A DNA stretch of 63,474 nucleotides, counting the filler, from Thraustochytrium aureum (lineage: Eukaryota), in NCBI GenBank assembly GCA_012862495.1. It is 10 parts of 6 records of this genome, joined end to end, with 100 filler letters (N's around TTAATTAATTAA, not from the genome) between each part and the next. Parts side by side here need not be neighbours in the genome. Positions count along the whole stretch, not along the records: positions 41,832 to 49,177 come from BLSG01000052.1; 9 more parts are not named here. The stretch is one strand, 5' to 3'. Position numbers and translations under genes: made by a program. Below, in pieces: positions 13,676 to 62,189 of the stretch (positions are counted from its first letter, which is position 1; each line of letters begins with the position of its first letter). The notes under the pieces were generated by a model. It saw only the letters and a list, made by a program, of their open reading frames with translations, did not search any database and was not told where the DNA came from.

Positions 13676-13841
13676 GCGTACGGGCTGCTGACGGCTGGGC
13701 CGGCAGCTGGGGCAGAGCGCGATTTGAGCGATCGACGAGCGGTCCAGGTGCTGGTGATCTGGGTGTGCGCGCGGTGTACCAGCGCGTTGGAGGAGGTCGG
13801 CTCGTTGGCGCCGGCGGAGGCCCGGCTGGGCGGCAGGCGAG

Positions 13842-31658: not shown

Positions 31659-33903
31659 ATGGGGGCGACGTGGAGCCGCTCGAGCCGCTGGCTGGAAGAC
31701 CGCCACTGGACCCCAGCGTGGCGCGGAACCTGAGCCGCATGTACACGAGCCATCGCACGAGCAACAGTAGCGGCACGAGCCATACGAGCGGGGCGACGCA
31801 CGAGACGAACGACACCAACCGGAGCAGCAGCATTAACGATGCTTTCAGCCCAGAAGTGACCAACATGGCCTGCGCCTACGGGCACCTCAGGTTTGCGAAC
31901 GGTGCCATCTTTCAAGGAATCATTTGCAATCGGGTCGAGGGCTTGACGAGGACGAAGTGGATCGAAAGGAGCTTGAGACCCTCGTGGCCAACTTTTTAAC
32001 CAAGGACGGTGAGTGCTTGCACGGCGTGTGGCTCTTCCAGCGACTGTCGTACGACATGCAGGCGCGCTCCCCCGTGGCGAGCTACTCTACANNNNNNNNN
32101 NNNNNNNNNNNNNNNNNNNNNNNNNNNNNNNNNNNNNNNNNNNNNNNNNNNNNNNNNNNNNNNNNNNNNNNNNNNNNNNNNNNNNNNNNNNNNNNNNNNN
32201 NNNNNNNNNNNNNNNNNNNNNNNNNNNNNNNNNNNNNNNNNNNNNNNNNNNNNNNNNNNNNNNNNNNGCTCCTGCAAGATTCGTCTGTGCATATTTACAA
32301 AGGCCCTGTGCAAGTGATGCTCAAGAACGGGCGCATTGTCCTTCCTCTCGCCAAGCAGCTCCTAGGCGGGGTGCAACCGCGCCCTTCGCTGGCCGCGCTG
32401 GAGTGCGGCCAGTTTGACGAGCAGTTCTGCGCGCCTGCGGAGGCAAGTTTCGGTGGCGAGGCCCTGCCCGCAGGCCATTCGGTCGCCAGCCAAGCACCAG
32501 TGAACCCGGGTGCGAACAACACCTCCGGCCAGCCAGAGCCTTTGAGCGATCGAGGCTCGCTGGGATCTATCCCCGCCAATCCCTCGACCTCCGGAGGGGA
32601 CGGCCACGTTGCTTTTACCCACGAAGTCGAGTACGCCAAGTACCCTATAGCCTCTCCGCGAGGGGCCGCATTCTCAACAGTCGTCCGAGGGGGGAGACAG
32701 AGTCTGGCGAGCCTCGCCGGACGCCGAGGCGACGCCTCACGACGTCGGCCGCCAGCCAAGACCGCGGCAGGCCCAACATCAGACGCGACCACCGCGTCCT
32801 GTTCTGGAGCCTCGCCGGGAAAAGAGATGGCCCGCAGCAAGTGGGATGACCCCATAAACAGCGACTTGCACCGAACGCACTTTCACCGCTTCTTGGACCG
32901 GTCCGCCGACTCGGCTCGCGAGCAGCTACACAGCATCCTGCGTTATGTAGCTGTCGCATTTCCTGGCATCGGGTACTGCCAGGGCATGCACTGCGTGGCA
33001 AAGTTTCTCCTAATGTTCAGCGAAGCGCCCGCGCAAAAGCCCGAGGCAGCTGCCTCGCCGAATGCTCAAGGCGGCCCAGCTGGCAGCGCATCCGGCAGTG
33101 GGCGGCAGCTCAACTCGAGCGTGATGCTCGAGACAGAGACTGCATTCGTTCTGTTTGCGCAGCTGCTTGAAGACACAAAGTACAGACTGCAGGACCTCTT
33201 CCACCCAGGGTTTGCGTTCTACAGGTCTGTTTTGGACGATATTGACAAGGAAATCGCCCGGCGCGAGCCCGTGCTCGCCGCCCATCTCGCCGACGCGGGG
33301 CTCTGTGCTCTCGTGTACGCCGCCAAGTGGGTCCTCACGTTGTTCACATTTTACGTGGACCAGGACTTTAGCTCGGTGACCAACGTGTGGCTTCGTTTTC
33401 TCTCGCAGGGCTGGGACGCGATATTGCAGGTCGCGGTCGCCTCTGTCTGCGGGGTCAAGGAGCACCTGCTGAACACTGACGCGGAGGGCTGCATCCTGAT
33501 TCTGTCGGGGACGACAGACGTGACTCCGCATGGCATTTTGGAAACCGTGTTTGGGACGACGCGAGGGCAGGCGCTGCTCGGGGACAAGGGCATGCACGTC
33601 TCCTCCGTGTCGGAGGGGCGGTCGATGGCTGAGGAGCGCCAGCACGAGCGCCAGCACGAGCGCCAGCAGTCAGGTGCGGTGCGGCCGCGCACGGCAGACG
33701 CTGCTCCTGGCCCGTTTGCAACCGAGACGGCCGCGAGTGCGGGCACCCAATTGCCCGCCGCGCCGCCCCTGTCCCCGCCGCTTTCGCTTGCCCCGCTGCA
33801 GGCCGAGCCGTCGGAACTCCATGAGCAAGCTGCCCGCCTCCTGGCAGAGACGCCCAAGCTAGAGAGCCGCGCGGTTCCAAATCGGCGGTATACCCAAGAC
33901 TGA
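31659..33903 (+). CDS. TBC-domain Rab GTPase-activating protein (frameshifted, gapped; start uncertain)
   Basis: INSDLHRT (IxxDxxR arginine finger), IGYCQGM (glutamine finger), YAAKWVLTLF, VWLRFL. Confidence 0.88.
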
Positions 33904-34044: not shown

Positions 34045-34471
34045 TTACTGCGAGTGCGCCAAGGCGGCCGGTTCCTTCGGCACTAGCCTTGCTGCAAGAG
34101 CGTCAAGGAGCTCCTCGGCTTTGCCACAGAGGAAAACCGAGCCGAGGGCGGACGTGATGCGCGTCTTGCACGTGTTGATCTCGATCACCTTGGCCCCCGC
34201 CGCCTTCGCGATCTCCGGTAGGTACCCAGCAGGGTATGTGGATGCCGAGGTGCCAATGACGAGGCAGACGTCGTCGCCCTTGAGCGATTTGGCCGCCATG
34301 AGGGATTTCAGCCAAGCTTCCTCTGGCAGCGCTTCCATCAAGAGGACGCAATCAGGGCGAAGCAGCGCGTTGCAGTCCGTGCAACGAAAGATTGCCGCGG
34401 AGGGTTCAGCCCCTTGAGCAACCTGGTTTGCGATCAACTCTTCAGTGTTGTCGTCCACGATGCGCCAGCAC
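34045..34471 (-). CDS. Sirtuin (CobB/SIRT5-like) NAD-dependent deacylase, C-terminal part; 5' end in gap
   Basis: RCTDCNALLRPDCVL.EALP, VIGTSASTYPAG, VIEINT, GKAEELL. Confidence 0.88.
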
Positions 34472-35752: not shown

Positions 35753-36266
35753 GAACTCTTCAGCTCTGCCTAACGATCACAAACGAAACGCTTCGTGCAA
35801 CAATCTCTGCTGCGACCCAAGCAGCCGTTGTTCAGTCTCGTAGGCGCATCCTACCAAAACGTTTGCGGAGCGGCTTTGCGCAGCGAGCCTTGTCGGAGGG
35901 AGGAAGACGCACCCAGTGCCAGCCACTGGTCGAACGGGCAGCTGTTGCCGTCGCCAAGCCGTCACCATCACCAATGTCCTCCTGCCAAAACGATTTTTTC
36001 AGTTCGGCTCGAGCTGGCCCAACGGCTATCTTCCACTCAACTAAAGCCCTCCCTCGTGCGCTGCCGAGCCGGGCGGGCACAGCAGAGGCAGCACCGATAG
36101 CGAGGCTCGCAGCAGATTGGAGCACCGCTGCGGGACGAGCACCAGGCTGGCAAGACGAGGCAGCGCTCGGCTGGAAAAGCTGCGCAAGAAACCTCCATCT
36201 CAAAGCTGCGCACGACGCCCGAGCCCCGCGAGCAGGACCTGAGGAGGCCGCGCGCGGTCCGGCGGG

Positions 36267-37427
36267 ATGACGCGAAACGTGCATATCTACGTTCCGGAAA
36301 GCAAGGAGCGCCAGGTACTCGACATCCTCGAGGCACAGGAGGATGTGCGCAGGCTAGTCACCATCGCCTGCAAAGGGGGAAGCAAGCGCAGATTACCTTT
36401 TTGTGCGTCGAAAAGCGGCTTTCAAACATCTTGCTCGACCTGGAGTCAACTGGGCTGGGGACCGACTTTGGGTCCATTGACATTTTCGCGCTGCAGACCA
36501 CAATACCCTCGCTCAACCCGCCCAAGCCCAAGGACTACAAGCGCAAGTATCGAGTCTCGGACCGCCGCGCGGTGCGGGAGATCGAAACCTCCATCGATGG
36601 AATGCTGCACCTCACGTTCGACTATGTGCTTCTCGTCATCGTTGCGAGCCTGATCGCGTCGGCCGGCCTGCTCTCCGACTCGGCCGTGGTCGTGGTCGCC
36701 TCGATGCTGGTCAGCCCGCTGATGGGGCCGATCATTGCAGTTGCATTTGGGCTCGCAGTGGGGCGCGTTGACTTTGTGCAGACCGGGCTGCGCAACGAGG
36801 CGTACGGCTTGCTTTTGTGCTTTTTAGTGGGTTGCACCGCCGGCCTCGTCTCCGTCGCGTTTTACGAGCCGCTTGGCAACACGTACTTGACCAAGTTGAC
36901 GGGGGCGCACCTTGAACAGCGCCGAGATCGAGGCGCGAGGCCGCTTGGTGGCATTGTTCAGCGGATTTTGGACTGCGCTCCCGAGCGGCATCGGCGTGGC
37001 GCTGGCCACGACCAACGCGTCCCTCTCGGCGCTCGTCGGGGTCGCCATTTCCGCCGCCCTACTCCCGCCCCTCGTGAACTCGTCCATCTGCCTCACGATC
37101 GCTGGTGTGTACGCTGCCTCCGGGGTGGACGCAACGCTCGCCACGCACTTTGCCCAGATGAGCGTGGTCTCGTTCGCGCTCTTCGTCCTCAACTTTGTCA
37201 CGATCATTGTCTTCGCCATCCTCACGTTTCGGCTCAAGGGGGTCTCCGAGTCGTCGATTGAGTTCTCGGGCAGGCTGCGGCTGCCCTTTCGCCTCGGCGC
37301 CCGCCGCTCGGATGGCCCGGCCGACCTACAGCAAGGTGTCGTTGCTGTCGCCGACGCGAACCTCGTGTCAGTGTCCGGGGCTGCAAGCGACCTGGAGGCT
37401 GGTGCGCTGGCGCCGATGAGAGTGTAG
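36267..37427 (+). CDS. DUF389-family membrane protein (two frameshifts)
   Basis: IASAGLLSDSAVVVVASMLVSPLMGPI and LVGVAISAALLPPLVN are typical DUF389 motifs; joined from ORFs 36267, 36401, 36912. Confidence 0.85.
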
Positions 37428-37671: not shown

Positions 37672-39066
37672 TCAGAGCGCCTTCTTCGGCCCGGCCTCTA
37701 CATGCGCGCCGCCCTTGAGGCTCGAGTAGGTTGCAAACCAGAAAAAGCCATCAAGAACGGAGAACGCCTGCAGGGCGTGTACGGCGCGGTCCTTCGTCGG
37801 GTTGCTGAACCGTACGGTAATGAGCCAGCTCGAAAGGCAGAGGAACGCAAGCACTCGCGCAGTGTTGACCTTGTGCCCCTTTTCGAGGCCGTCAAAGAGA
37901 CGGCCGATGCAGATGTAGGACAGAAAGCAGACGAACTGCACGATCGGGGCCTCTGCTTGCTGGATAATGCTGAATTTGAGCAGCGCGGCGACGCTAAAGG
38001 CCATCGCGGCCAGGAAAAGCCAGACCACGTACGCACGTAGCATTGGGCTCTTGGCGGACGGCAGCCCGTCGTAGCGCTCGCGCTTGTTTGGCGCCGGCTC
38101 GGCCCACAGGCTGCGCTTGCGTTGGGGCAAGGGTGCAAACAGGGCTTGCGGGCGAAACACCAAGCGGTGGTTCACTCTGCGCTTGAAAAGTAGGCTCGCA
38201 AAGTAGCTCAGACCGCGGGCCTTTGCGGGGTCCACGTTGGCCTGCAGGCGGCGCAAGTGCTCCACGTTGGCGTAGACGGGGTCGAAGGTTTCGTACTGCT
38301 TGACGAGGCCATAGTAGTCGCGCTGCTCTGTCTCGCCTACAAAGGTCCCAAACATGCGGTCAAAGATGATGAGCACACCGCCGTAGTTGCAGTTGCCCGG
38401 CGGGCGGTGGTGCATGCGATGGTGCGACGGGGTGTTGAGGACGTACTCTAGCGGCCCCAGGTCGCCAACAAGCGTGGTGTGAACCCAGAACTGGTACAAC
38501 GTGTTGAGGGCCGAGTGCTGCGCAAAGACAAGCGGGTGGAAAAACAAAGCGCTTGGCAGCTTGAAAATCCACGAGAAAAACGGCTGCATGGCGCCCTGGC
38601 GCAGCGCCGTGGCCAGGTTGTAGTCCTCCCCCGAATGGTGCACGCTGTGAGCAGACCAGAGCAGGTGGTACACGTGGGCGTACCGGTGCATCCAGTAGTA
38701 GCAGCAGTCTACGAGGAGGAGCGATCCCAGCCAGGTCGCCCAGGACTGCGGGTCGCTGTCGACGAGGCGGAGTCGGTTGTAGATCCACACATACACCGTG
38801 GTGCCCATCAACTTGAGCCAATACTGCCAGAGCATCTGTACGGACCCCTGCAGGATGGAAACGATAGTGTCGTTCATCCGGTACACGGGGCGGCCCTTGG
38901 CCAGCGCGACGGCAGCCTCCACGCCAATCATCAAGAAGAAGTAGGGTACAGCCTGCACCATCGCGTCCGGCGCTTGCCCCGCCGTCACATGACCTGCCAT
39001 CTCGTTCGGGCCGACCCCGTAAAACATAATCCGCAGCCCCTTGGCTGCCTGAACCGCGGCCTCCAT
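37672..39066 (-). CDS. AGMO: Alkylglycerol monooxygenase (TMEM195-like)
   Basis: YYWMHRYAH, HSVHHSGEDYNLATALRQ, YQFWVHT, NTPSHHRMHH, NYGGVLIIFDRMFGTF; C-terminal KKAL dilysine signal. Confidence 0.9.
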   Translation of the reverse strand: MEAAVQAAKGLRIMFYGVGPNEMAGHVTAGQAPDAMVQAVPYFFLMIGVEAAVALAKGRPVYRMNDTIVSILQGSVQMLWQYWLKLMGTTVYVWIYNRLRLVDSDPQSWATWLGSLLLVDCCYYWMHRYAHVYHLLWSAHSVHHSGEDYNLATALRQGAMQPFFSWIFKLPSALFFHPLVFAQHSALNTLYQFWVHTTLVGDLGPLEYVLNTPSHHRMHHRPPGNCNYGGVLIIFDRMFGTFVGETEQRDYYGLVKQYETFDPVYANVEHLRRLQANVDPAKARGLSYFASLLFKRRVNHRLVFRPQALFAPLPQRKRSLWAEPAPNKRERYDGLPSAKSPMLRAYVVWLFLAAMAFSVAALLKFSIIQQAEAPIVQFVCFLSYICIGRLFDGLEKGHKVNTARVLAFLCLSSWLITVRFSNPTKDRAVHALQAFSVLDGFFWFATYSSLKGGAHVEAGPKKAL

Positions 39067-40466
39067 CTCGGCGCGCCCGACACTAGCTAGCTAGAGGACC
39101 CTCTCACTCGACCAAGCCAGCCAGCTTCCGCCCCACCCCGCCGCAGCCGTTCGTTCGAAAAGTGCGTGCAGGGCCGCCTCGCGCCAGGTGATTCGAGTCT
39201 GGCCGTCGTCCCAGGACCGGCAAGCGGCCTCCCTTGCGCCTTCATTCAATCCATCCAGCATCCGGCAGGCAGGATGCAGGCAGGCAGGGATTGCGGCGGC
39301 CGGATGTCGGGCTGCGTAACGCTGCGCAAAATCGTCGCTTCTGGTCGCATCCCAGAGGCCATCGTCCCCACCTGTCTCTCGAGTCACACTGCACACCGCC
39401 GCGGCTCGTGTGAGTTCCAGGGCGCAGAGTCGTTTCGGCGCTCTCGTCCCCCACCTCTCTCTCTCTGCCAGGGCTGGCAGCCTGCTCGGACTGGACTGCC
39501 TGCGTCGCGTGGGGCTCGGAGATACCGAGGTCGATCCAGTGATCCTCCGAGTCCAGGCTCGGGTCCTCCTCCAAGTTGTTTGATTTGTTTTGAATCAAGA
39601 TTGTGTTTTGAATCAAGATTGATAATCCATGTGGTTGGTTGGTGGTGNNNNNNNNNNNNNNNNNNNNNNNNNNNNNNNNNNNNNNNNNNNNNNNNNNNNN
39701 NNNNNNNNNNNNNNNNNNNNNNNNNNNNNNNNNNNNNNNNNNNNNNNNNNNNNNNNNNNNNNNNNNNNNNNNNNNNNNNNNNNNNNNNNNNNNNNNNNNN
39801 NNNNNNNNNNNNNNNNNNNNNNNNNNNNNNNNNNNNNNNNNNNNNNNNNNNNNNNNNNNNNNNNNNNNNNNNNNNNNNNNNNNNNNNNNNNNNNNNNNNN
39901 NNNNNNNNNNNNNNNNNNNNNNNNNNNNNNNNNNNNNNNNNNNNNNNNNNNNNNNNNNNNNNNNNNNNNNNNNNNNNNNNNNNNNNNNNNNNNNNNNNNN
40001 NNNNNNNNNNNNNNNNNNNNNNNNNNNNNNNNNNNNNNNNNNNNNNNNNNNNNNNNNNNNNNNNNNNNNNNNNNNNNNNNNNNNNNNNNNNNNNNNNNNN
40101 NNNNNNNNNNNNNNNNNNNNNNNNNNNNNNNNNNNNNNNNNNNNNNNNNNNNNNNNNNNNNNNNNNNNNNNNNNNNNNNNNNNNNNNNNNNNNNNNNNNN
40201 NNNNNNNNNNNNNNNNNNNNNNNNNNNNNNNNNNNNNNNNNNNNNNNNNNNNNNNNNNNNNNNNNNNNNNNNNNNNNNNNNNNNNNNNNNNNNNNNNNNN
40301 NNNNNNNNNNNNNNNNNNNNNNNNNNNNNNNNNNNNNNNNNNNNNNNNNNNNNNNNNNNNNNNNNNNNNNNNNNNNNNNNNNNNNNNNNNNNNNNNNNNN
40401 NNNNNNNNNNNNNNNNNGCGAGCGAAGTCGCAGACCAGCTCAGGTCGTCTGTGTCACGCCAGAGAA

Positions 40467-41471
40467 ATGGCGCGGCTGACGTGCCTTTCGTACAACATAC
40501 GGTTCGTCCTGGACCGCCACCGCGAACGGATGCCGTTGATCAAGCAGGTCCTGCGCGACGCAGATGTCATCGGCATGCAAGAGGTCCAGAACGGCGGGTA
40601 CCTCTGCGGCCAGGATCGCGAGCTCCAGCAGTTCCTCGGCGACTTTGCAGCAAACAGCGGGCCGTGCTTCCCCGCATACATCGCGAGCATCCCGGTGTTG
40701 GGGTGGCTTTTCACCCTGTTCTTCGCGAGCCCGATCGGCCTGTTGTTCCGCGATCTGTACGCACTCTTCAACAGCGTCGTCCTCGAGCCGCTGCTCTGCT
40801 GGGTCGACGGCCCCATGCTCTTCCACACGCCTGTGCTTGGCGACATCTTCTACTTTGTGCTCGGCTCGGGCTGGTCATTCGGCAACTGCACGCTGGCAAA
40901 CAACGACCTCAAGCCCCAGAGCTTTCCGCCGCTGCTGCTCGGCGGGAAGTACCGCATTGCTCAAAAGACGCTTGTGCACGTCCCGCGGAGCGAGGAAGAC
41001 AGCGACCTCGAGCCGCACCGCGTGTGGATTGTCAACGCGCACCTCAGCGACACGCCATCATTCCCGACCGAAGAGCTGCGCGCGTCTTGCGAGGCGGCAC
41101 GCCTGTCCGAGTTTCTTCGGATCGTTGCCTGGGTGCAAGGCGAGCAGGGTATTCGGCAGGATGACTCGATCGTGATCATGGGCGACCTCAATAGCCCGCC
41201 AGAGGAGAGCCTGCATCGCGTGGTGTCGGAGCAGGGTTTCGCGAGCGCTTTCAAAACTGCCAACGGAGAAGAGCCCAAGATCACCTTCCACCAAAACCAC
41301 GAGTGCACGACAAAGGACGTCGGCTTTGAGGAATGCCTCGACTACATTTTCTTCCGCGGCCCGCTCGCGGTCGAGCGCGCCGCGCTTGCCGGCAACCAGC
41401 CGCACCCCTGCGATAAGACGCTGTACCCGAGCGACCACTTTGGCGTCCGCGCCACGTTTCGCTTTTTGTGA
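40467..41471 (+). CDS. Endonuclease/exonuclease/phosphatase (EEP) family hydrolase with hydrophobic insertion
   Basis: LSYNIR, DVIGMQEV, IVNAHL, VIMGDLNS, LDYIF, YPSDHF. Confidence 0.9.
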   Translation: MARLTCLSYNIRFVLDRHRERMPLIKQVLRDADVIGMQEVQNGGYLCGQDRELQQFLGDFAANSGPCFPAYIASIPVLGWLFTLFFASPIGLLFRDLYALFNSVVLEPLLCWVDGPMLFHTPVLGDIFYFVLGSGWSFGNCTLANNDLKPQSFPPLLLGGKYRIAQKTLVHVPRSEEDSDLEPHRVWIVNAHLSDTPSFPTEELRASCEAARLSEFLRIVAWVQGEQGIRQDDSIVIMGDLNSPPEESLHRVVSEQGFASAFKTANGEEPKITFHQNHECTTKDVGFEECLDYIFFRGPLAVERAALAGNQPHPCDKTLYPSDHFGVRATFRFL

Positions 41472-41832
41472 TGATGCCTTGCTCCTTCGTTAGAACTAAA
41501 CCGCCCATGACCTTGTCTATTTGCTTCTGCCTCATCCCCGACGATCAGTGGTAGGCCTCTAGAGCTAGGTATGTAGTACCTGTGAAGCGAGGGAGAGCCC
41601 TGTCCGGGTCGGTCAGCGTGCAGGACCATTCCACCGTCGCCACCGAGGACGGGACGCGCGCATCCCGGACCTTGCAACGCCAAATCGTGGCAGACTTGGG
41701 CGCAGCAAGTCCAACGCTCTTGGATGATGAANNNNNNNNNNNNNNNNNNNNNNNNNNNNNNNNNNNNNNNNNNNNTTAATTAATTAANNNNNNNNNNNNN
41801 NNNNNNNNNNNNNNNNNNNNNNNNNNNNNNNG

Positions 41833-43890
41833 GACGACCGCTGGGCCGTCGCCCTGTACGACTACAAGGCGCAGCAGACCGGCGACGGCGACGCGGGCCA
41901 GTTTCTCAGCATCGGCGCCGGCGACGTCCTTCTCGTGAGCCCGAGGGAGAACAAGGACTGGTGGCCCGCCAACCTGAACGGCAAGATCGGCTTCGTGCCG
42001 CGCAACTACGTCAAGCTCAAACCGCCAGACTGGACACCGCAAGCGCTCTCGACGCTCCTCGAGACGGGCCCGGGCCCGGCGGCGTTGCTGCGAGCCGTCG
42101 GTCGAGCTCAGGTGCGGAGCAGGCTCCGACTAGTTTGCAGAGACCCGACAGCGAGTCCAGCAGCTCCGACGGCGAAGACGAAGCCAACAATGACGACGAG
42201 GTGGAGGACTGGGAGATCGCAACAGCGCTCTTCCCCTTTGAGGCGAGCAACGAGAGGCAGCTCTCCTTCCGCGAGGGAGAGGAGCTCTTTGTGCTCCCCG
42301 TCGAGGGCCAGCAATGGTGGGTCGCTGCCAACGCCTCCAGGGCGACGGGGCTCGTGCCGTTCAACTACCTCGAGCTTGGCCCCGCAGACGAGCTCGGCAG
42401 TGGCGCCGAGGCGGAGAGCGAGAGCGAGAGCGACGAGGCCGCCAGCGCCAACGGCGATGACAGCGAGTCCGGCCTCACAGCTGGACCCCAGAGCCCCGGC
42501 TCGGTTCATAGCGGGTCTTTGGAAGCGAGAGGCAGGGCCGGAGCAGTTGCTATTTGCCAGTACGACTTTGTCGCTCGCGAGACGAACGAGCTCTCCTTCA
42601 CGCGCGGCGAGTTCCTCTGGGTCCTCGAAACAGGCGTCGAATGGCTGCGCGCCAGGAACGACCGCGGCGACGAGGGCCTCGTGCCGTCCAACTATTTGCG
42701 GCTCATGTCGGGGCGAGCCATCCGCTCCCTTTCTAGGAGCAGCGGCCCTGAACTCGCCGACGCATCAAGCGCGGGGCCCAACGACCAGCCGCTCGCCAAA
42801 CTCGGCAACCTGCTCTTTTTCCGCGTTCTTGCAGACTTGTGCGGGCCGCCGCAGCCCGACCCTGAAGGAATCCTCGCGGCGTTTTTCCATGCGGCGTCTC
42901 GAGCCCGGCGCGGCGCCAATAGAGACTGATGCAAAGACCCTAGAGTCGAGCGACGCTGCCGCGCTTTGGGTCGTCGTGGAGGGGCGACTCGAGATTCTCC
43001 ACCAAGGCAAGCACTTTGGCGACGTCCCAGCGGGGCAGTGGGTGGGCGAGACGCTTGCTACTGGCGCGAGCGCCGGGATGGTGTCGTTGCGTTGCAAAGA
43101 GGCCTGTACTGCCGCAGTGCTCACGCGCAAAGGGTTTGCGCAGCTCGAGGAGCGACAGCCGGCCGCCGCCGCGGCGCTTCGAACCATGGCGCAAGCTCGC
43201 ACGGGCGAGGCGCTCGGCAAGCAGATCGGCTCTGGGCTAACTTCCGACCAAGAAACTCTTCTCGGCTTCCTCCTGCGCTTTCGCCGGTTTGTGGCGGACG
43301 AGATCGTTTTCCGCGCCGGAGACGCCTCGCGCGACATGTTCCTGATCGTCAGCGGCGAGGTGCACGCCCCAGAGCGGAACGAGTACCTTGGGCCCGGGGA
43401 ATGCCTGGGACGCAACAGCCTTCTGCGAGGCGAGGCGAGGCGTTTCAGCGCGGTTGCCACCAAAGGCGCAGTGGCCGTTGCGCTCCGCGGCCAGGACCTG
43501 GCTGTGTTTCTGGAGGCCGCACCAGACGCTGCAAAGGCGCCAGGGCTGCGCGACTTTGTCTGGCACAAGTCGGCAGATGCGCTGCGGCAAATCCCTTTCT
43601 TCCGCAGCGTTCCGCGGGACAAGCTCGACAAGATTGCGTCCATGTGCCGATACCAGTCCTATGAGGAGGGAGAGGCAATTATTCGCAGCGGGGAGGTCGG
43701 GAACGACTTCTTCGTGATAGAGGCCGGCGTGGTCCGGATCGAGGTCCCCCACGCGCCAAATCACCGGCCAGCCATGCCGGATCGCAGGGCCCGGGACGGC
43801 CCGGGCAAGTCCGAACCTCTGCGGCGGCCGCGAGTTAACGACACGCTCCTTGGGCCAAACGACTACTTTGGCGAAATCGCGGTCCTCCAA
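41833..43890 (+). CDS. 3x SH3 + 3x cyclic-nucleotide-binding domain region (probably N-terminal part of the PI3K gene; 5' end in gap)
   Basis: SH3s ALYDY...WW...GFVPRNYV, ALFPF...WW...GLVPFNYL, CQYDF...W...GLVPSNYL; cNMP motifs VVVEGRL...GQWVGE, IVFRAGD...LIVSGEV...GECLG, IIRSGEVGNDFFVIEAGVV...DYFGEIA; frameshifts near 42060 and 42890. Confidence 0.88.
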
Positions 43891-44348
43891 NNNNNNNNNN
43901 NNNNNNNNNNNNNNNNNNNNNNNNNNNNNNNNNNNNNNNNNNNNNNNNNNNNNNNNNNNNNNNNNNNNNNNNNNNNNNNNNNNNNNNNNNNNNNNNNNNN
44001 NNNNNNNNNNNNNNNNNNNNNNNNNNNNNNNNNNNNNNNNNNNNNNNNNNNNNNNNNNNNNNNNNNNNNNNNNNNNNNNNNNNNNNNNNNNNNNNNNNNN
44101 NNNNNNNNNNNNNNNNNNNNNNNNNNNNNNNNNNNNNNNNNNNNNNNNNNNNNNNNNNNNNNNNNNNNNNNNNNNNNNNNNNNNNNNNNNNNNNNNNNNN
44201 NNNNNNNNNNNNNNNNNNNNNNNNNNNNNNNNNNNNNNNNNNNNNNNNNNNNNNNNNNNNNNNNNNNNNNNNNNNNNNNNNNNNNNNNNNNNNNNNNNNN
44301 NNNNNNNNNNNNNNNNNNNNNNNNNNNNNNNNNNNNNNNNNNNNNNNA

Positions 44349-46774
44349 CGCCGACCCGCCGCCGACGCAGTCCCAGGACTGCCTCGCATTTCTGCGGACG
44401 CCTGGTCCAAGCTCATGATTGACGTCACACGGCAAGCTCTGGCCGTCCAGCACAGCTGGGACAGGACTGCGCGCCAGGGTCAAATGCCAGCCGGGGGGTC
44501 CTGGCCGCTGCACGTCAAGCTCGTCGGCATCCAAGACACGCACCACCTTGGCCGGCTTGAACCTGGCGAGACGCTCTGTCTCCGCATCGAGCTTGTGGTC
44601 AATGCCTCAGTGATCGAGTCTCGCTTCTCGCGCTCCTTTGCCGGCGGCCTCGTCGTCAGGCTTGATGAGGACGTTTGGTTTGGGACGCGACTGGCGCAGG
44701 TCCCGGCAACGCGCGGGTTTGCTTGACGCTCTTTGAGCTGGCGAGCCGCTCGAGCAAAACCGGCAGCACGGGCGCGCTGGAAGCACTCTCTGCGTCGCGA
44801 AGTGTCCCGGGGGCGGGGCCGGATTCTGCGGCAACCGCTGCGCTCGAAGACGCCAAAGTGTTGGCTGGCGGTGAAGCGCAACTGTTCAACCAGAGACTCG
44901 AGCTTCAGAGCGGGCCGCTTGTGGTTGTTTTGTGGCCGCGTCGGGAGGCGGAACGCGCGCTGTTTTGTCTGAACGAGCCTCACGAAGGGCGCGCCACGGC
45001 CGTCTTGCACCTCGACGAGTTCTACAAGACCGTGTACCACGAGCTCCCGCCGGGAGCGGCGGAGCCGCTCAAGCAAATCAGCGGCGCTCCTGGGGCTGAC
45101 GGCGATGCGTCGACTGCGAGCCCGCCTCATCCGCCCCCGACTGCGAACAGCTCGCCGTCCGGCGGGCTCGAGAAAAAGAAGACGCTCCTCGGGCGCCTCA
45201 TGGGAAGTACTGCGACGCAGGTCGTCGCGCAAGGCCTGGGCGAAAAAGGACAGTCAGGGGGTTTGGGGAGCGAAGGCGATGGGCCTGCAGATGGAGGGGG
45301 GCCGTCTTCTGAGAAGGCCCCTGGGCACGACGATGGGCGCGACGGCGACCTCGACGGGAGCCGTGCGCGCGACCAGCGAGATGCAGCGTTCCGGGCGCTA
45401 GAGTTGCTTGACGCACAGCACGTGGACCTTCGCGTGCGCGAGCGAGCTGTGCGAGCGCTCGAGGCAGTCAGCGACGATGCCCTGGGGGACCTTCTCCTGC
45501 AGCTCGTGCAGGCGCTAAAGTTCGAGCCCTGGCACGAGTCAACGCTTGCAAGTTTTCTCTTGCGCCGAGCGCTTCAAAACCCGCGCGAGATCGGCACGCG
45601 GCTGTTCTGGCTCCTACGGTCCCAGATGCACGAGAAGCGGTTCGCGACGCGGTACGGAATTGTACTCGTTGCGTACCTGGACAACTCGAGCGCGGCCCAC
45701 CTCTCGGACCTGTCGCAGATGGTGGACGTGCAAAACTTGCTGCAAGACGTCGCCGTTGACGCGGCCCAGAACCGCAAGCTGACATCCAAGGTGGAGCGCA
45801 ACAACTTTGTCCGGCGCGAGTTGTCGCGGCTGAACGGCCAGTTCCCGGCCAATTTCCAGCTTTGTCTGGACCCCAAAGTTGTGCTCGGCGGTCTCTTTGT
45901 GGAGTCGTCCCGGGTCATGACTTCGAAGAAGCGACCTCTTTGGCTCAAGTTTGCTCCCACAGACCCGGTCGAGGCCGGGGGCGAGTCCAAGCTTGTCATG
46001 TTCAAATCGGGCGACGATCTGCGGCAGGACCAGCTGACGCTGCAGCTGCTTCGGTACATGAACACGACCTGGACTGAGAACGGGCTCGACTTGCGAATGT
46101 GCTTGTACGAGTGTCTCGCGACAGGCGACAACGTTGGGTTTCTGGAGATTGTGACCGACTCTGAGACGACTGCCGCGATCCAGAAAAAGCACGGCAAGCT
46201 CGGCGCGCTGAGCGCGCGCTCGCTGCTGCTCTGGCTGCAGGAGGTGAACGCTGGGAAAGACTTTCGAGCCGTGGTGGACAACTTTGTGCGGTCCTGTGCC
46301 GGCTACTGCGTGGCGAGCTTTGTGCTCGGGCTGGGGGACCGCCATAGCGACAACATCATGATCAAGCGCGACGGGCGCCTCTTCCACATCGACTTTGGGC
46401 ACTTTTTGGGCAACATCAAGCGCAAGTTGGGTGTCAAGCGCGAGCGCACGCCATTCGTGTTCACCAAGGAGATGGCGCACGTCATGGGTGGTCGGAGCGA
46501 AAAGCCTTTCGCGCTGTTTGTCGACTTGTGCTGCCGTGCGTACAACGTGCTGCGCCGGCACGGCTCGCAATTGATCACGCTGTTTCGACTCATGGTGCCT
46601 GCGGGCTTGCCAGAGTTGCGCAGCGAGCGCGACCTCGAGTTTATCATGGAACGGCTCGCGCTGGACCAGAGCGACGCAGAGGCGGCGAGCCGCTTCAAGC
46701 GCGAAATCAACAACGCGTTGAGCGACACCTACCGCCGACTGGACAACGCGATCCACAATTGGAAGACCAACTAG
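44349..46774 (+). CDS. Class I-like phosphoinositide 3-kinase (C2, helical and kinase domains)
   Basis: C2-like segment 44349-44726, frameshift near 44705; helical LLQLVQALKFE, LFWLLRS; kinase MTSKKRPLWL, FKSGDDLRQD, GLGDRHSDNIM, FHIDFGHFLGNIKRKLGVKRERTPF. Confidence 0.95.
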
Positions 46775-46910
46775 CGGGAGGGGGCGATGGCGACCCAGTG
46801 TGCGCAAGCCGTGCGTGCGTGTTTGCGCGCATGCTAGCGTGCGTGGGCGACGCCTGAAAAAGAATTTTGATGAACTGTCAATGATGTTAGGGTTTTGGCG
46901 ACCTGGCCGA

Positions 46911-48890
46911 TCAGGAGCGCACGAGGGCCAGCGCGAGGGCCCCTTGCGGCGTCTCGAGGAACAAACGGAGACGCTCGGCCGCTGCTGCTTGGTCCTCAGA
47001 CGGAACGTGGCAAGGCTTGTTGCGAATGGCCCCATTTTCGTCCACGTGCACGAAGGGCCCATAAAACCCGCCATACGTACCCATGGCGGCCTTGCAGGCC
47101 TCAGGGGAGGGCTGGCCGCGGTCCGGCTCAAAGTTGTCCTTGTTGAGCTCACGCAGCCGTGCAAAAAGGCGCTCGACAACGTCCGGATGATCGCTCGACA
47201 CCTCAGAGTCTTCATTCGGGTCCTTTGCGATGTTGAACAAGCAGCCATCCCCGCAAAAGCGCCCGCGCGTCAGGGTGGACTTGATTGCAGCCTTGCCCCA
47301 TCCATCAGCGTGCACGTCGAACGTGGTGTAGTTTTCCGGAAAGGTTCTAAAGATGGCCTTGTCGGACCCAGTGATGAGCTTCCAGGGGCCTGAAATGATG
47401 GTTTTGCTGGAAATGTGCATCTCGGATCGCGGGCCCTTGCCGAGCGGCACCTGGCCAGAGAGCAGGGGCCACTGGTTCAAGCCGTCAACGGCAGGGAGCG
47501 AGTACTTGTCCGCCCTTTCGTCAAAGCTGTCGACGCCGGCAACAGCGCACAGTGTCGTGTACCAATCGGACACGTGGATGTAGTCGTCCACGACTTTGCC
47601 GCGCATCGGAACGGGCACGGCGCCGCCGGATACGAACGCGTTCACGCGGATGCCGCCTTCCCAGTCCGAGGTCTTTCCGCCGCGCAGCGGCCGGTTTGTG
47701 GCAGCTCCAAAGGTGCTGCGAAAGTGCGGTTTGGTTGGCGAAAGCATCGAGCCGTACTGGAAAGCGTCGTCGCGGATTCGTCAGCAGGGATCTGGGCCAA
47801 GCCATCGCTCATCCGCAGCTAGCTCACTCTCGTACACGTCTTCGTCGCCGTCGACGTCGCCGTAGGGTACGAGCCAGAGGGCCAGCGAAGGATTCAGCAG
47901 CGAAAGGGCCAAGGTCGGCCGGGTCAACAAGCGGCAAGAAAAACTTACGATTGGTCCGCCATTGTCGCTGGAGACGATCAGGAGCGTGTTCTGCCACATG
48001 CCCTTGCGCTGGAGCGCGGCGACCATCTCGCCTAGGGAAGAGTCCATGTACTCGACCATGGCCGCATAGCGGCGACGATCAGGGTTGCTCAAAAACGAGT
48101 ATCGCGTTTCGATTTCGGGTGGGGGTTGCAGCGGGGTGTGGATGCTGCGGAAAGCGTGGAAGAGGAACAGCGGCTCGTCTTCCTTGGTGGCGTCGTGCGC
48201 CAGAATGGTGGCCACGCTGTGATCCGTAAACATGTATTCCTCCCATGCAGTGCCGTTGAGCGTGCGCGCAGGCCCGGTCGTGTTCCAGAGGTCGACGAGC
48301 TCGAGGCCTTGCTTTTGGCAGAGGTCCTCGTGCACAGTGCTCCCAGCGTCGAGTCGCTGATTGAGCATCGAGTTGGCGTGGTGAAAGTAGCCGAAGAAGG
48401 TCTCGTATCCGCGGCCCATTGGCGTCTGTTCGTATGTCGCCATCCCGGCGTCCCACTTGCCGGTCATGTGGGTCCTGTACCCAGCCGAGCGCAGCTTTTC
48501 GGCAATGCCGGTCATCTTTGTCGGAATGCCGGAAAAGCCGCTCACGGGGTCATTCGGGTTGACGGAGATCGGGTCTGTGTTTTCCACGCTCACGTGTACG
48601 GGGAGGCGCCCGCTCTGCAGCGACGACCTCGACGGCGAGCAGTAGTTGTACGTGTAGTGCCTGTTCAATTCAACGCCTGCCTTGACGAGAGCATCGATGT
48701 TCGGCGTGTTGATCTCTTCGTCAGCGTGCGGGTTGCCGGTGTTTCTCTTGCGGTGGTATCCGACGTCGTTCCAGCCCCAGTCATCCACGAGGACGAGGAG
48801 AACGTTGGGCTTTGCGCCTTGCGCTTTGTCGGGGGCGAGCGCGACCGTCGCTGCGGCCAACGCGATGGCGAGCGCTGCTCGTGCAGCCAT
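46911..48890 (-). CDS. Secreted arylsulfatase (formylglycine-dependent S1 sulfatase), two exons
   Basis: Signal peptide; PNVLLVLVDDWG, CSPSR, GKWD, SSDNGG, PLRGGK...WEGG; intron 47757-47948 (GTAAGT...CTGAC...CCAG) joins GGPI to YGSML in frame. Confidence 0.93.
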
Positions 48891-49278
48891 GGTGCTCCGA
48901 GCGGTCCTTGTGCTCTGTCCGTCTGTCCGAGTCTGTCCGAGTCTGTCTTGTCTGCCTGTCTCGTTGCGCTTCTTCCTTCGTTGCGGGTTTGCCGTGCATC
49001 ATGTGTCAGTGCTCTGTGACTGGGAAAAACATGTGGCTCATTCTCCATGCCTTTGCGGTTCGAGAGCTCAGCGGGACACCGTGGCCAACGAGGTCGGCGC
49101 AGAGCTGACCACGCAGTGCGCGAAGGCGGTCGAGAGCGATGGTGCCACCGCCAGGTTGGATCATCCACAAGGACGGTNNNNNNNNNNNNNNNNNNNNNNN
49201 NNNNNNNNNNNNNNNNNNNNNTTAATTAATTAANNNNNNNNNNNNNNNNNNNNNNNNNNNNNNNNNNNNNNNNNNNNA

Positions 49279-55473: not shown

Positions 55474-55573
55474 NNNNNNNNNNNNNNNNNNNNNNNNNNN
55501 NNNNNNNNNNNNNNNNNTTAATTAATTAANNNNNNNNNNNNNNNNNNNNNNNNNNNNNNNNNNNNNNNNNNNN

Positions 55574-56704
55574 GTGCTGGAGCCTCCCACGCCCGCCGGC
55601 TTTGCAGAAGGCCGCGCGTTCGACGCGGCCTTCACCCTTGCCTCGGGCTGCTCGAGGAGCACGAGGAAGAGCGTGAGGTTGTCGCTGGAAAGGCGCACGC
55701 TCGTTGACTCGCGCAGGACCGCCTTGTAGGCCGCTTCAAGCCGCTCTCGAAACCCCTCCGGATCCTCTCCTGGGCCCTCGAGCACGGAAAACTTTTTCAG
55801 GATCTGCACCACCTCGGCGCTAGACATGGCGTCCCAGAGTCCGTCGCTTGCAAGGAGGATGGCGCGGTGGTGCGGCTGGCGCCGCACGCGCGTGACATCT
55901 GGCTCGTTGCTGATCGGGCAGAGCCGCCGCGGCGCGTTGACCGGTTTGTACGAGACGTCGCCCAGTGTGCGCGACACCGCAAGGTCCCCGTTGACGCGAA
56001 AGTCGTCAATGAAGCCCCCGGCGAGCAGCACCCGGCGCTCTTCAGAGGCGACTGTCGGCTTGTGGTCGAGCGTGACGAACTCGAGCGAGTAGTCCTCGTT
56101 CACCAGGATGCCGCGCGAGTCGCCGAGGTTGCCAAAGGTGATCGAGTCCTTGTCGAGCAAAGCAAAGGTCAAGGTGGTGCCGTTGTTCTCGGAGGCGATG
56201 GGAAGCAGGCGACGAAGGCGACTGTCCAGCTCGGTGATTGACCGGTCTAGCTTGTCTCTGAGGCGGGTCTCGCCCGCCTCTGGGCCGCCATTGTCGTTCA
56301 GGTGTTTTTCAACCATGTTGGCCAGGTGCCGCGCGGCGTAGTCGGCGACGATGTGGCCCTCGCCCTCGAGGCCGTGGCCATCCAGTACGGCGTACAGGGC
56401 GCGCGAGCCTCCGCAGATGCGCGCAGCGATGTATCTGTCCTCCATGTACGGCCTGTACCCCTGGCTCTCCACGAGGGAGTAGGCGGCTACTCCGAGAGGG
56501 GTCGGGTCCTCGGGGGGTCCACACCACGCGATAGGGCGGGAGTCCGGCCCACAGGCGCCTCAGCTTTTCGTTACATAGCGTCAGACGCAGACAGCAGCTC
56601 AGCTTGAACTGAGCGATCTCCTCCACGAGGGGCGGCGGGTCAGGGTTCGGGTCCAACGGCGCTCGAGCCTCCCCAGGTTCTTGCGGCGCGGTCCCCTCCT
56701 CCAT
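55574..56704 (-). CDS. PP2C (PPM) protein phosphatase
   Basis: QGYRPYMED, VLDGHG, GTT, NLGDSR, DHKP, LAVSRTLGD, LASDGLWD, SDNLT; probable ATG 56704 with frameshift at the G-run near 56515; 3' end in gap. Confidence 0.92.
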
Positions 56705-57053: not shown

Positions 57054-59144
57054 CAAACACGCCCCATGGCTGACAAAAAGCGAAGTGGGAAGCAGCAGCT
57101 TGGAAGGTTTGGCCAGGTAGATCTCCTCAACAGAAACCCCGAGCTCGAGGCGCTCCATGTCGATGGTCCAGACAACCGCGCAGGGGTTGCCCTTTCGCGG
57201 CCCACCACTTTTGAGGTGCCCGAGCCCAACGACGTAGCGGTCTGCGACGACTTGGCCAGCTGTCGTTGGTTCGAAGCTGGCCAAGTCCGCCGATGCGACC
57301 GTGCGGGAACTCGCCAATGGGTCAAGCCTCTGCTGGAAGAAGTCTGACGTGGCCCCGCTGCGCATCGAGTCAACTCGAGCAATGCGAAGCGGCCAGAAAC
57401 TCTCCACGAAGAAGAGCGTCGCGTCCATCGAAAACGGCCCACACGCCGACCCGCCCACCCCGCCGTCGAGCTGTACCTTTTCGCCGCTTGACGAAACGAG
57501 ATAGCGCCCGTCTGGCTTGCGGCCGCCGTCACTTTGGCCGTAGCCTGCCAGAGCCTGAGAGCTTTGGGCCTGCACAAGCGACCACAACTCCCCTTGGTGG
57601 ACCACGGCACACGGGTTGAGCCCCGGGCCGAGGGCGTGGGGCGCCACCCCGTTCAAGTTGAATGCGGCGTCGAGCGGCTCCAAAAACAGCTCCGAGCCCC
57701 GAAACTGGCCGTCCGTCAAAGATTGCTCCCAAGCCGCGGTTTCGACGCGCCGATACACGACGCCGAAGGAAACATTGCCGAATTGCGAGTCGATCATCGG
57801 CACGACCGCAGAGGAGACCACAGGCCGCTCCGCCGTCTTGTCCACTGAAGTGCGCACCCGCTGGATGCGCGAAAGGGAGAGGTGGCCCTCGTCCGTGGAC
57901 CCAGTCTCCACGAGCTCGAGAACCCAGCTAGGCGGGTCGGCGAACGGAGCTGGAAAGGCGAAGCGCGACTGCGCGCTGGTGTGCAGAACGAGCGTCAAAG
58001 ACAAGACACGCGACAGCGCTGGGAGAGACATCGCCCCGAGGAGGCCCAGCGGCCCGACCCAGCGAAAGATCATTCGCAGTCGATTGCGCACTCGCCTCTT
58101 GTCTTCCTGGTCCACGATTACGGGGCTCTGCTCATACAGGAAAGAAAAGCCAAGGCAAGCCAGAAGCGAAAGGATTCCAGGGAACGTGGCGTGCTTGTCC
58201 CACATGAGAACGTTGATGAGAATTGTGAGCGCCTTGCAGGCATCCCCAACGACGGAGAAGGCTGTTGCCGAGACCACCTCGCGCGCCGCGAAGGCGAAGT
58301 AGCTCATGAGCGTGCCGAACACGCAGCTCACCAGGAGCCACAGCAGGCCGATTCCGCTGGCTGCAGAGGCCGCCTCGGCGACCTGCCAGGCCTCGCCCGT
58401 CAAGGCGTTGATGACAACTAGCGGGGCCAAGGGCAGCAGGTTGGTGTAGAAGACGCGCCCCCAGGTGGACATGTCCACATTGTCGACAATGTGCTTGATA
58501 TAGATTTGGTTGACGCAGAAGACGACGTACCAAGTCACGGCCCAGAAGACAGAGTTGACCGTGAACTGCGCCGACTCGAACACAAGGTAGCCGAGCCCGG
58601 ACAGAAAGATCCCCACAAGGCAGGCGGTGGACCTTGTGCTCGGGAGGTCGCGGTTCAGAAACACGGCGTCGAGCACGGAGAGGGCCAGCGGGGCCGAGGC
58701 CCGAAACACGATAAAGGTCTCCACGTTGGAGAACTGGAGCACTTTGATGTTGCTGTAGACCGTCAGCAAGAACACGGCCGGCACAATCCAAAACCTCTTG
58801 GTCGTTTCCCAGTCCAGCGCGTCCACCTCGATGCACTGCATCCGTCCAGCGGCCCACGTAAAAGCACTTGCGCTCGCGAGCTGCAGAAAGAGGATTACGG
58901 ACGGCAGGGGCAAGTGCGACACCGCGAGCTTGTTCACCACGAGCAGACTGGCCGACACGCCCATGTACCCGCCCACGGCGAAAACCCGCTTGGTCCGCGT
59001 CGTCCGGGCGAGCGAAGCAGTGGCCGTCGTGTCCGCATCCTCCTCCTCCGCCAACGCGAACTCGCCCGATTCGATCGCGGTGTCCGGCCCAGGACTGCAG
59101 TCGTCCTCCACCGTGCTCACCACCTTGTAGCTTATCGAAGCCAT
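57054..59144 (-). CDS. GDP-sugar transporter (GONST3/4, SLC35D-like) fused to a C-terminal globular domain; 3' end in gap
   Basis: LLVVNK, SNIKVLQFSNVETFIVFR, WGRVFYTNLL, SATAFSVVG..CK.LT..IN..WDKH; uninterrupted ORF continues ~350 aa. Confidence 0.9.
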
Positions 59145-59765
59145 CTGGCCCCGTCCCGGCTCTGCTCCTTCGCGCGCGCTGCTCGTCGCGCTCTCCTCGG
59201 GCTTCTGCGCCCTCGCGACCCGTCCCTGCNNNNNNNNNNNNNNNNNNNNNNNNNNNNNNNNNNNNNNNNNNNNTTAATTAATTAANNNNNNNNNNNNNNN
59301 NNNNNNNNNNNNNNNNNNNNNNNNNNNNNGCGTTACGTACGACGTGCGGCCTGTAAGTAACACCGCGCGGAGCCGCGGCGAGCTGTTCTTGGCACGCACG
59401 AAGGGTTAACTACACAAAGCGGATGTAGCTAACGAAAAGCCAGCGTTTGCGCGAAGTACACGTCGTTTTTCGTTTGTGCACGTTAGTAACAACACGCGGC
59501 GCGTGGGCGTGCCCAGGCGTGCGGGCGGGCGATTTGTTATTGACGTCGAGAGAGGTAGCTAACGGACGCGGCGGTGTGGCTGGATTTGGGTGGCGCGCCC
59601 GAGCTGGCGCAGCAAGCAGAACAGAGCGAGGACGCGCGGTGCCCGACTCCGCGCTCGCTCCTGCTCTTGGGCGAGTCTATCGCTCTTCCGGCTCGCCGTC
59701 TTGCCAACAACACAGCACAGCGCAGCGCAGCACTGCCCTGCACTGCACGGGCCGTGGGAGCGAGG

Positions 59766-60304
59766 ATGAGCCGGCCGAAGAAGCGAGGGCGCGTCCAGGT
59801 GGTCGAGTTCAACGACGAGCCCGGCGTGCCCGGGGCGCAAAAGCGCGCACGCGGGGAGGACGAGCGGGCGCGAGGGCCTCGCGAATCGACGGCCAACTTG
59901 AATGACCGCGCCATGAAGAAGAGCATGGACCAGGCGTGGGACGACGTATTAGAGTTTGGCGCGCAAAACCTCGGCAAGCGCGAGCGAAAGCGCTACGACG
60001 ACGCAAAGCTTGTGCGGCTCGGGTTCAAGCCAGCGAAAAACCCCAAGATACCGCAGCACGTCTTCTTCTCCATGAAAAAGACGCACGCCAAGCGCGAGGC
60101 CAGCAAGAAGGCCGAGGAGCTGGCGTCGGGCGTTGTTGTAGCAAAAATCCACCAAAACCAAGAGCAAGCGCAACGACAAGGAGCGGCCCCGCAAGCGCCG
60201 CGACGACTTGCACGCATGGGAGGGGGGCACGATGCGCGGGGGGGTTCTGCGGTTGCGCAGCGCAGAGTAGACGTCCGCGGCCCCCCACGGCGATGACATT
60301 GTAA
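59766..60304 (+). CDS. DUF4602 / C1orf131 (Faf1-like) ribosome-biogenesis protein (frameshift near 60150)
   Basis: Basic protein with DVLEFGAQNLGKRERKRYDDAKLVRLGFKPAKNPKIP, resembling the C1orf131 core. Confidence 0.6.
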
Positions 60305-60910: not shown

Positions 60911-61172
60911 NNNNNNNNNNNNNNNNNNNNNNNNNNNNNNNNNNNNNNNNNNNNTTAATTAATTAANNNNNNNNNNNNNNNNNNNNNNNNNNNNNNNNNN
61001 NNNNNNNNNNCTCTTCCTCGCCCGACCGCGTCGCTGACGCTGCCAGCACAAAGACACAGCCGACGGGCACCTCCCGCCGGTCCAGGGCGGCCTGGCCCTC
61101 GCGCAGGGCTTGGCGCATCCACCGCTCGTCGGCCATCGAGGCGGAAGCGGGATTGATTTCCGGCCGGCCGCG

Positions 61173-62089: not shown

Positions 62090-62189
62090 NNNNNNNNNNN
62101 NNNNNNNNNNNNNNNNNNNNNNNNNNNNNNNNNTTAATTAATTAANNNNNNNNNNNNNNNNNNNNNNNNNNNNNNNNNNNNNNNNNNNN

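Follow-up and report, generated by a model that had tools for sequence, protein, structure and literature searches.

In animals and Dictyostelium, cyclic nucleotides reach phosphoinositide 3-kinase (PI3K) only indirectly, via receptors, G proteins, Ras, PKA or Epac. A gene of Thraustochytrium aureum raises the question of whether a PI3K can carry cyclic-nucleotide sensors of its own. This gene lies at positions 41833-46774 of the window, that is, of the whole 63,474-nucleotide (nt) stretch analysed here (assembly GCA_012862495.1), on the part taken from record BLSG01000052.1. It combines three SH3 domains, three cyclic-nucleotide-binding (CNB) domains and the C2, helical and kinase domains of a PI3K (Table 1). 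This is a real, expressed and conserved new arrangement of class I-like PI3K, common to related protists. Direct control of this lipid kinase by cAMP or cGMP appears likely, since the SH3 domains, the CNB domains (one of them with an intact motif) and the PI3K sit in one chain.

Does the DNA really encode such a chain? Pfam searches on pieces of the window place all domain matches of the gene on the + strand and bear out the domain order proposed in the initial annotation. They detect one SH3 domain within 41833-42120 (E 5e-12), two more in a second frame (E 4e-25), three cNMP_binding stretches within 42871-43890 (E 3e-26), PI3Ka (E 3e-29) and PI3_PI4_kinase (E 6e-59), as well as a weak PI3K_C2 match (E 0.022, under the curated cut-off). 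The C2 region is also matched by tblastn with the C2 domains of the relatives P0003 and P0004 (E 1e-16 to 5e-8), which themselves pass the Pfam cut-off (P numbers designate proteins found in the searches described below).

The window as written yields no single protein. The initial annotation had rightly flagged a 457-N gap at 43891-44347, and only this gap; three more frame changes are found outside the gap, near 42077, 42882 and 44710, and a stop codon stands at 42927-42929 in the SH3 frame. Six sequencing runs were found, and the contigs of four of them (X1-X4) were aligned to the window. They restore one base after 42077 (X1), remove one at 42882 (X1, X2 and X3), and add one at 44370 (X1) and another at 44709/10 (X1, X2 and X3); a further error near 44355 is read from contig loose ends. 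The frame changes are single-base assembly errors.

The gap cuts the third CNB domain (CNB3), as first described, and the cut falls within the phosphate-binding cassette. It is bridged by one contig of run X2 (record 10, 3066 nt), which matches the window over 42086-43890 and 44371-44623 and has 1009 letters in between. The true gap exceeds the drawn one, these 1009 letters standing for the 480 places between 43890 and 44371. Position 43890 closes a codon and 44371 is the second codon base in the C2 frame; because 1009 (336 x 3 + 1) leaves a remainder of one when divided by three, as this codon offset requires, the two sides lie in one frame. The frame mismatch initially reported across the gap holds for its drawn length and disappears at its true one. 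The corrected path, 41833-46771, amounts to 5469 nt, exactly 1823 codons. The RNA status of X2 rests on an intron test: the sulfatase gene next to the PI3K contains a 192-nt GT..AG intron that X2 leaves out and the DNA run X1 reads through. Since X2 is spliced RNA, SH3-2, SH3-3, the three CNB domains and the start of C2 lie on a single contig of spliced RNA. This bridge is an assembled contig rather than one molecule, the gap in it is known by its letter count, and none of the pieces listed spans the whole gene. RNA contigs of X2-X4 end at 46770 and none of those listed covers 45254-45471 (contigs of one study, not used as evidence). A metagenome scan for the gap sequence brought up 4 loci (23-28% identity) that have no relation to the gap, and searching longer proteins with the CNB region gave a score for none of 7993 candidates. 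The contig comparison also reveals 38 single-base strain differences, of which 36 fall within the gene, 24 of these being synonymous; the proportion is 7 of 9 in the CNB segment. The fusion of the SH3, CNB and PI3K parts in one expressed gene is real. The single chain proposed at the outset is upheld both by the in-frame RNA contig and by 13 single-chain relatives, and its length has to be revised from at least about 1600 to about 1830 residues.

The 5' end of the gene is truncated by the assembly. The window is a chain of small scaffolds, in which two 44-N runs separated by 12 bases occur at nine places from 7841 to 62189 (the 12 letters at 41776-41787 read TTAATTAATTAA). These paired runs are artificial scaffold linkers, so that gene neighbourhoods across them mean nothing. 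The scaffold bearing the PI3K gene extends from 41832 to 49177; the gene thus begins at the scaffold edge, and the DNA left of 41732 is no true neighbour since a linker sits there. Only a few codons are lost at the start of the gene, because relatives match the first window codons from their residue 5-8 in the protein alignment.

By its sequence, the kinase is a class I-like PI3K. The P-loop, the catalytic lysine, DRH and DFG are all present, and the best 60 of 143 PDB matches are all class I p110 structures, p110 beta coming first (E 1e-117). The basic activation loop, DFGHFLGNIKRKLGVKRER, initially described as of class I/II type, is of class I type, as borne out by the PDB matches and the alignment. 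It retains the equivalents of p110 alpha K942 and R949 (counted from the DFG aspartate as 933), two residues which recognise PIP2 according to part of the text of PMC7614683. No Pfam match to the N-terminal p85-binding domain (PF02192) was obtained in the window pieces or in 13 clade relatives, and the protein is therefore not placed in class IA. The C-terminal PX and C2 domains of class II are absent, the frame stopping at 46772-46774 right after the kinase domain.

Is this arrangement peculiar to one species? The helical-kinase part was searched among longer proteins, and the best 120 of 1576 matches were taken. CNB domains are present in 25 of these best 120 (own profiles, with which Pfam agrees), and 13 of the 25 (P0003-P0008 and P0010-P0016, 49-61% identity) form one clade with the window kinase. 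Its support amounts to 0.991 with FastTree (253 rows) and to an SH-aLRT of 98 in a quick 64-row tree, with SH-aLRT only, of all CNB-bearing rows and a chosen sample of others; a 20-row node obtains 1.0 in a 356-row tree. The layout of the clade is two or three SH3 domains, three CNB domains, a Ras-binding domain (RBD), in some cases a further SH3, then C2, helical and kinase domains. The fourth SH3 domain is found in 5 of the 13 proteins, and one or two CNB domains were detected in P0003, P0006, P0007 and P0008. The SH3 part is lacking only in the late-starting P0003 and P0006, and in the P0006 cluster a longer protein does have three SH3 domains. All 14 proteins of at least 1269 residues (aa) under the 20-row node have their CNB domains and kinase in one chain. 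The five shorter proteins (P0151 and P0323-P0326) begin at the RBD end or later, P0323 starting inside the RBD, and are read as fragments, which is not proven for P0325.

The CNB domains largely sort by position, those of CNB1 type grouping together in the clade (0.993). Each window CNB groups with its same-position counterpart in P0003/P0004, so both halves of the gene share their nearest relatives. The window kinase has the longest end branch among its four nearest rows (0.37). Two clade members are named, GBG30282.1 from the thraustochytrid Hondaea fermentalgiana and KAH9253398.1 (P0013), labelled Batrachochytrium salamandrivorans; the others are metagenome, Logan or transcriptome proteins. 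P0013 nests beside P0012, a place in the tree with which its fungal label fits badly, and class I/II PI3K is reported lost in fungi in part of the text of PMC4617754. The record may be mislabelled or stem from contamination; no literature report on it was found.

The tree neighbours of the clade are stramenopile PI3Ks (oomycetes, Triparma, Ectocarpus), with low support for the exact sister in the largest tree. Two further clades associate CNB domains with a PI3K. One has the layout WW-CNB-GAF-C2-helical-kinase, with no RBD detected (14 rows, SH-aLRT 99: P0049, P0050, P0069, P0089, P0095, P0103, P0105, P0107, P0113, P0223, P0232, P0249, P0258 and P0280), and includes Hondaea GBG33290.1 and a protein of Thraustochytrium sp. 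LLF1b. Its CNB and GAF domains make two possible cyclic-nucleotide sensors. Hondaea thus carries both versions, SH3-CNBx3-RBD and WW-CNB-GAF. The other clade has two or three CNB domains followed by an RBD, without SH3 (4 rows, one a fragment; SH-aLRT 100); most cassettes of its members P0045, P0047 and P0093 are non-canonical. Forcing the three clades together costs 99 log-likelihood units (p-AU 7.4e-5), with groups set by domain layout after a first tree had been seen and in a tree without a class II or III root. A single origin for the three is thus rejected: the combination has had at least two origins or has undergone repeated loss, in an order that such a tree does not give. Other protist class I-like PI3Ks (P0030, P0035, P0048 and P0056) show added families, namely PF00179, PF00788 with PF21989, PF00112 and PF00616, some of which may be gene-model fusions.

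Which of the CNB domains could bind a cyclic nucleotide? Four residues were scored in each: the cassette Gly, Glu/Asp and Arg, plus the beta2-beta3 Gly. The latter co-evolves with the cassette Arg, and the Gly169-Arg209 pair marks allosterically coupled, cAMP-binding CNB domains, as described in part of PMC2246266. CNB1 of the window lacks the cassette Arg and the beta2-beta3 Gly. CNB2 has kept both and has an Arg in place of the ribose-binding Glu. CNB3 has all four residues, three in the window and the Arg in an X1 contig, where the cassette goes on S-E-V-R-S-A past the gap edge; P0003 and P0004, which read GEIAVLASEPRSA at this cassette, agree with this Arg. The scoring thus sustains the proposal that only the third domain is canonical. 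The CNB1 beta-roll is predicted with a pLDDT mostly of 80-90, and the CNB2 model superimposes on PKG 7lv3 (Z 14.4, root-mean-square deviation (rmsd) 1.7 over 110 residues). Compared with solved CNB domains, the beta-roll is found in the models of the window piece (Z 14.4-14.8) and of the relative P0146 (Z 19-20). Within the limits of the models, the CNB fold is preserved in all three window domains; the truncated CNB3 folds poorly.

In the clade, 18 of 34 CNB domains have all four residues. At least one intact CNB is found in 8 of the 13 proteins, CNB3 being among the intact ones in all 8, and P0010, P0011, P0014, P0015 and P0016 have three intact domains. The simplest reading is that the ancestor would have had three working sites, of which the thraustochytrids would have kept the one next to the RBD, some lineages having lost canonical binding. 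Ser or Thr follows the cassette Arg in all 18 intact domains, unlike in PKA and Epac. This R-S/T-A motif matches PKG and not PKA (parts of PMC3080414 and PMC3765617). It was rejected as a decisive sign of cGMP selectivity, since many bacterial and channel CNB families have it as their default as well (Table 1 of PMC2246266, a source covered in part), and the clade domains are for this reason described as cGMP-permissive only.

The gap probably holds the rest of CNB3, an RBD and a linker. In P0004, the end of CNB3, the linker and the RBD take 271 residues past the gap anchor; an RBD in the gap is likely because the 336 codons available fit this 271-residue core plus a linker. About 80 residues separate the RBD end from the pre-C2 helix in P0323, which is among the closest relatives. 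The SH3 and CNB part thus probably stands beside an RBD, which the initial annotation had not foreseen, and not in its place, as the RBD directly follows CNB3, at the gap position, in 11 of the 13 relatives. A model of P0146 shows three folded CNB domains, and the segment behind them can be aligned with PI3K gamma in its RBD-C2 region; domain positions in this model are unreliable because of its pTM of 0.36. Residues 621-725 of this model form a small beta-rich domain plus a helix between RBD and C2, where other members have their fourth SH3; this could possibly be a degenerate SH3.

How could such a chain work? CNB3 probably binds a cyclic nucleotide, on the strength of its four residues, and there is a somewhat smaller, still favourable probability that this binding would alter the activity or the location of the kinase in one way or another. 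That nucleotide at the intact CNB3 would switch the kinase on by relieving an autoinhibition, by analogy with PKG and Epac, is a tentative proposal with slightly less than an even chance. In this scheme, the CNB triplet would restrain the RBD-C2-helical-kinase core in the nucleotide-free state, and binding would shift the hinge and the C-helix of CNB3, a movement known from PKG and Epac, and free the core, which would make PI(3,4,5)P3 from PI(4,5)P2 as known families do. A Ras-family signal would come in through the RBD, so that the chain would act as a coincidence detector; its SH3 domains would recruit it to proline-rich partners, replacing a separate p85 or p101 subunit, and CNB1 and CNB2 would be structural spacers in this lineage. 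Intramolecular autoinhibition through the SH3 domains is unsupported, since no internal SH3-ligand motif common to 14 clade proteins was found. A prediction, run without alignments, that paired CNB1-3 and the helical-kinase part of a relative in a complex scored 0.00 and weighs neither way.

Several observations weigh against this scheme. The direction of regulation is not readable from sequence. The same chain and the same binding at CNB3 would fit equally well if the nucleotide turned the kinase off or only relocated it, hiding or exposing an RBD or membrane surface with an unchanged catalytic rate; lying directly before the RBD, CNB3 might control localisation or the access of Ras. However, the nucleotide acts as an activator in the closest structural relatives (PKG, PKA-R and Epac), and this variant is unlikely. 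As for the binding site, the CNB3 Arg comes from one 30-letter loose end of one low-depth X1 contig and from the two nearest relatives, CNB1 and CNB2 are degenerate in this gene, and conservation of CNB3 with respect to P0004 is no better than that of CNB2 (44% and 45%). Moreover, P0006, P0007, P0008, P0012 and P0013 (5 of 13) have no intact CNB, so that CNB-like domains can persist without a canonical ligand site. The triplet could then be a ligand-independent scaffold or accommodate another small ligand, as in KCNH channels, PDZ-GEF and the nucleoside-binding trypanosome PKA, with the kinase regulated via RBD and SH3 alone. Indeed, one or more of the key residues are missing in 16 of the 34 clade domains, and non-canonical CNB domains with other ligands are known (part of PMC2246266). 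This explanation deserves some weight and is nonetheless rather improbable: CNB3 keeps all four residues here and in P0003, P0004 and P0005, and five deeper relatives keep three full cassettes; drift by itself would not have maintained this in kinases only about 50% identical.

The integrity of the gene has to be weighed as well. The helical domain has its C-terminal ~100 residues, the first ~70 being replaced by low-complexity sequence. The missing residues were sought in all frames of the window and not found, and the DNA contig X1 confirms the letters over 45200-46163, with no gap there. The domain is full in 5 of 6 aligned relatives (P0004, P0323, P0006, P0010 and P0016), and the Hondaea model is without about 50 of its residues. 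This shortening may alter regulation or stability. Together with the frame switches, the degenerate CNB1 and CNB2 and the long end branch, it could suggest a copy which is decaying or catalytically impaired. This is very improbable, as the frame switches are errors, the gene is transcribed, its catalytic motifs are intact and the strain differences are mostly synonymous. Finally, since the 1009 gap letters are known by number, a stop codon or an RBD there is not read directly, and an SH3-CNB adaptor gene and a PI3K gene could flank the gap, all the more as five clade members are without the CNB part. Such a pair of genes is very hard to reconcile with an RNA contig crossing 43891-44347 in frame and with the CNB domains present in the kinase chain of 14 out of 14 clade members of sufficient length, the five short ones reading as fragments.

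The other genes of the window were surveyed by scanning 31 open reading frames. The sulfatase gene adjoining the PI3K lies at 46914-48998 (-), with its intron spliced out in run X2. A diaphanous-type formin is encoded at 13758-17665 (+), with GBD, FH3, a gap and FH2. The assembly shows frequent single-base indel errors, and a DUF389 match at 36101-37424 (+) is split over two frames, probably by another one. Ten further genes are ordinary eukaryotic ones: Ferric-reductase/NADPH-oxidase-like, protein kinase, RabGAP-TBC, Sir2, fatty-acid hydroxylase (two), Exo_endo_phos, PP2C, TPT transporter and FSAF1.

Table 1. Features of the PI3K gene and its surroundings, in window coordinates.
Feature	Position	Strand	Basis
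Scaffold linker N44-TTAATTAATTAA-N44, removes gene start	41732..41831	.	N-run positions and letters
SH3-1, with ALYDY, WW and GxxPxNY-type motifs	41839..42018	+	Pfam; 65% identity to P0004 residues 8-77
Missing base (window error)	42077	+	Run X1 contig
SH3-2	42210..42377	+	Pfam and relatives' alignment
SH3-3	42540..42707	+	Pfam and relatives' alignment
CNB1, degenerate, contains window error (one extra base at 42882)	42790..43200	+	Contigs, residue scoring
CNB2, partly degenerate	43207..43587	+	Residue scoring, fold comparison
CNB3 first part, Gly169 equivalent and FGEIAVL	43588..43890	+	Residue scoring
457-N assembly gap	43891..44347	+	Bridged by contig X2 record 10
Proline-rich linker, pre-C2 helix, PI3K C2; window errors at 44370 and 44709/10	44348..45052	+	tblastn with P0003/P0004; weak Pfam; contigs
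Low-complexity Gly/acidic stretch replacing first ~70 helical-domain residues	45060..45390	+	Alignment; DNA contig X1
C-terminal portion of the helical (PIK) domain (profile positions 79-181 of 185)	45383..45703	+	Pfam
PI3K catalytic domain: MTSKKRPLW, FKSGDDLRQD, DRH (46337-46345), DFG and basic activation loop (46391-46447)	45704..46774	+	Pfam, PDB matches, alignment
Stop codon TAG	46772-46774	+	Reading frame
192-nt GT..AG intron of adjoining sulfatase gene	47757..47948	-	X2 skips, X1 reads through
Loci of the ten ordinary genes named in the text	3412-5910 (-), 8277-9488 (-), 32269-33900 (+), 34048-34470 (-), 37675-39090 (-), 40419-41468 (+), 55573-56559 (-), 57054-59228 (-), 59559-60293 (+), 61038-62090 (+)		

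No literature describing an SH3-CNB-PI3K combination was found in a full-text search judged on titles and abstract starts, with most subscription journals outside its reach. In the part of the PI3K phylogeny of Philippon et al. that was covered (PMC4617754), the word "cyclic" is absent, and neither PI3 nor phosphatidylinositol nor phosphoinositide occurs in the CNB survey of Kannan et al. Term searches of PMC12221091 (main text and 4 supplements) and PMC5784254 gave nothing on this protein, and neither did the K942/R949 portion of PMC13589923. The Hondaea proteins stand in public databases under automatic names only. GBG30282.1, 'Phosphatidylinositol 3-kinase, putative', is an orthologue, 61% identical in the helical-kinase part, with the layout CNB-CNB-RBD-C2-helical-kinase; unlike the present chain, its public model starts inside CNB2 and is without the SH3 part. 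The name is an automatic one, and no study of this protein was found.

The chain shares with class I p110 alpha, beta, gamma and delta the C2-helical-kinase core, the catalytic motifs and the basic activation loop, and the RBD-C2 model of a relative aligns to residues 197-539 of PI3K gamma (Z 16.3, rmsd 15.4 over 276 residues). It differs from them by its three SH3 and three CNB domains, by its shortened helical domain and in that no adaptor-binding domain was found. The PI3K1-3 of Dictyostelium, the oomycete PH-domain PI3Ks and those of Triparma and Ectocarpus are non-opisthokont class I/II-type enzymes, and in the kinase the stramenopile ones are nearest on the trees. All non-opisthokont class I/II proteins are described as sharing RBD-C2-helical-kinase only (Philippon et al. 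2015, PMC4617754, in part); in contrast, SH3 and CNB domains have been added in this clade. A PI3K with a cyclic-nucleotide sensor of its own would overturn the published view of one plain layout in these proteins and would show how single-celled eukaryotes regulate a class I PI3K without p85 or p101.

On the sensor side, the best sequence and fold matches of the CNB part are to PKG. Apicomplexan PKG, with its three to four CNB domains, and Epac likewise have tandem CNB domains before the catalytic domain in one chain, and some CNB sites of apicomplexan PKG are degenerate too. Unlike in PKG and Epac, the catalytic domain is here a lipid kinase, no autoinhibitory pseudosubstrate was identified, and the coupling is proposed by analogy. 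The chances are about even that these protist PI3Ks are direct effectors of cyclic nucleotides and form a new class next to PKA, PKG, Epac and the CNG/HCN channels, one in which cyclic nucleotide, Ras-family GTPase and SH3 ligands would converge on one PIP3-making chain, a wiring which would have arisen at least twice in different PI3K clades. If this is true, a PI3K with its own cyclic-nucleotide sensor would directly link the two second-messenger systems.

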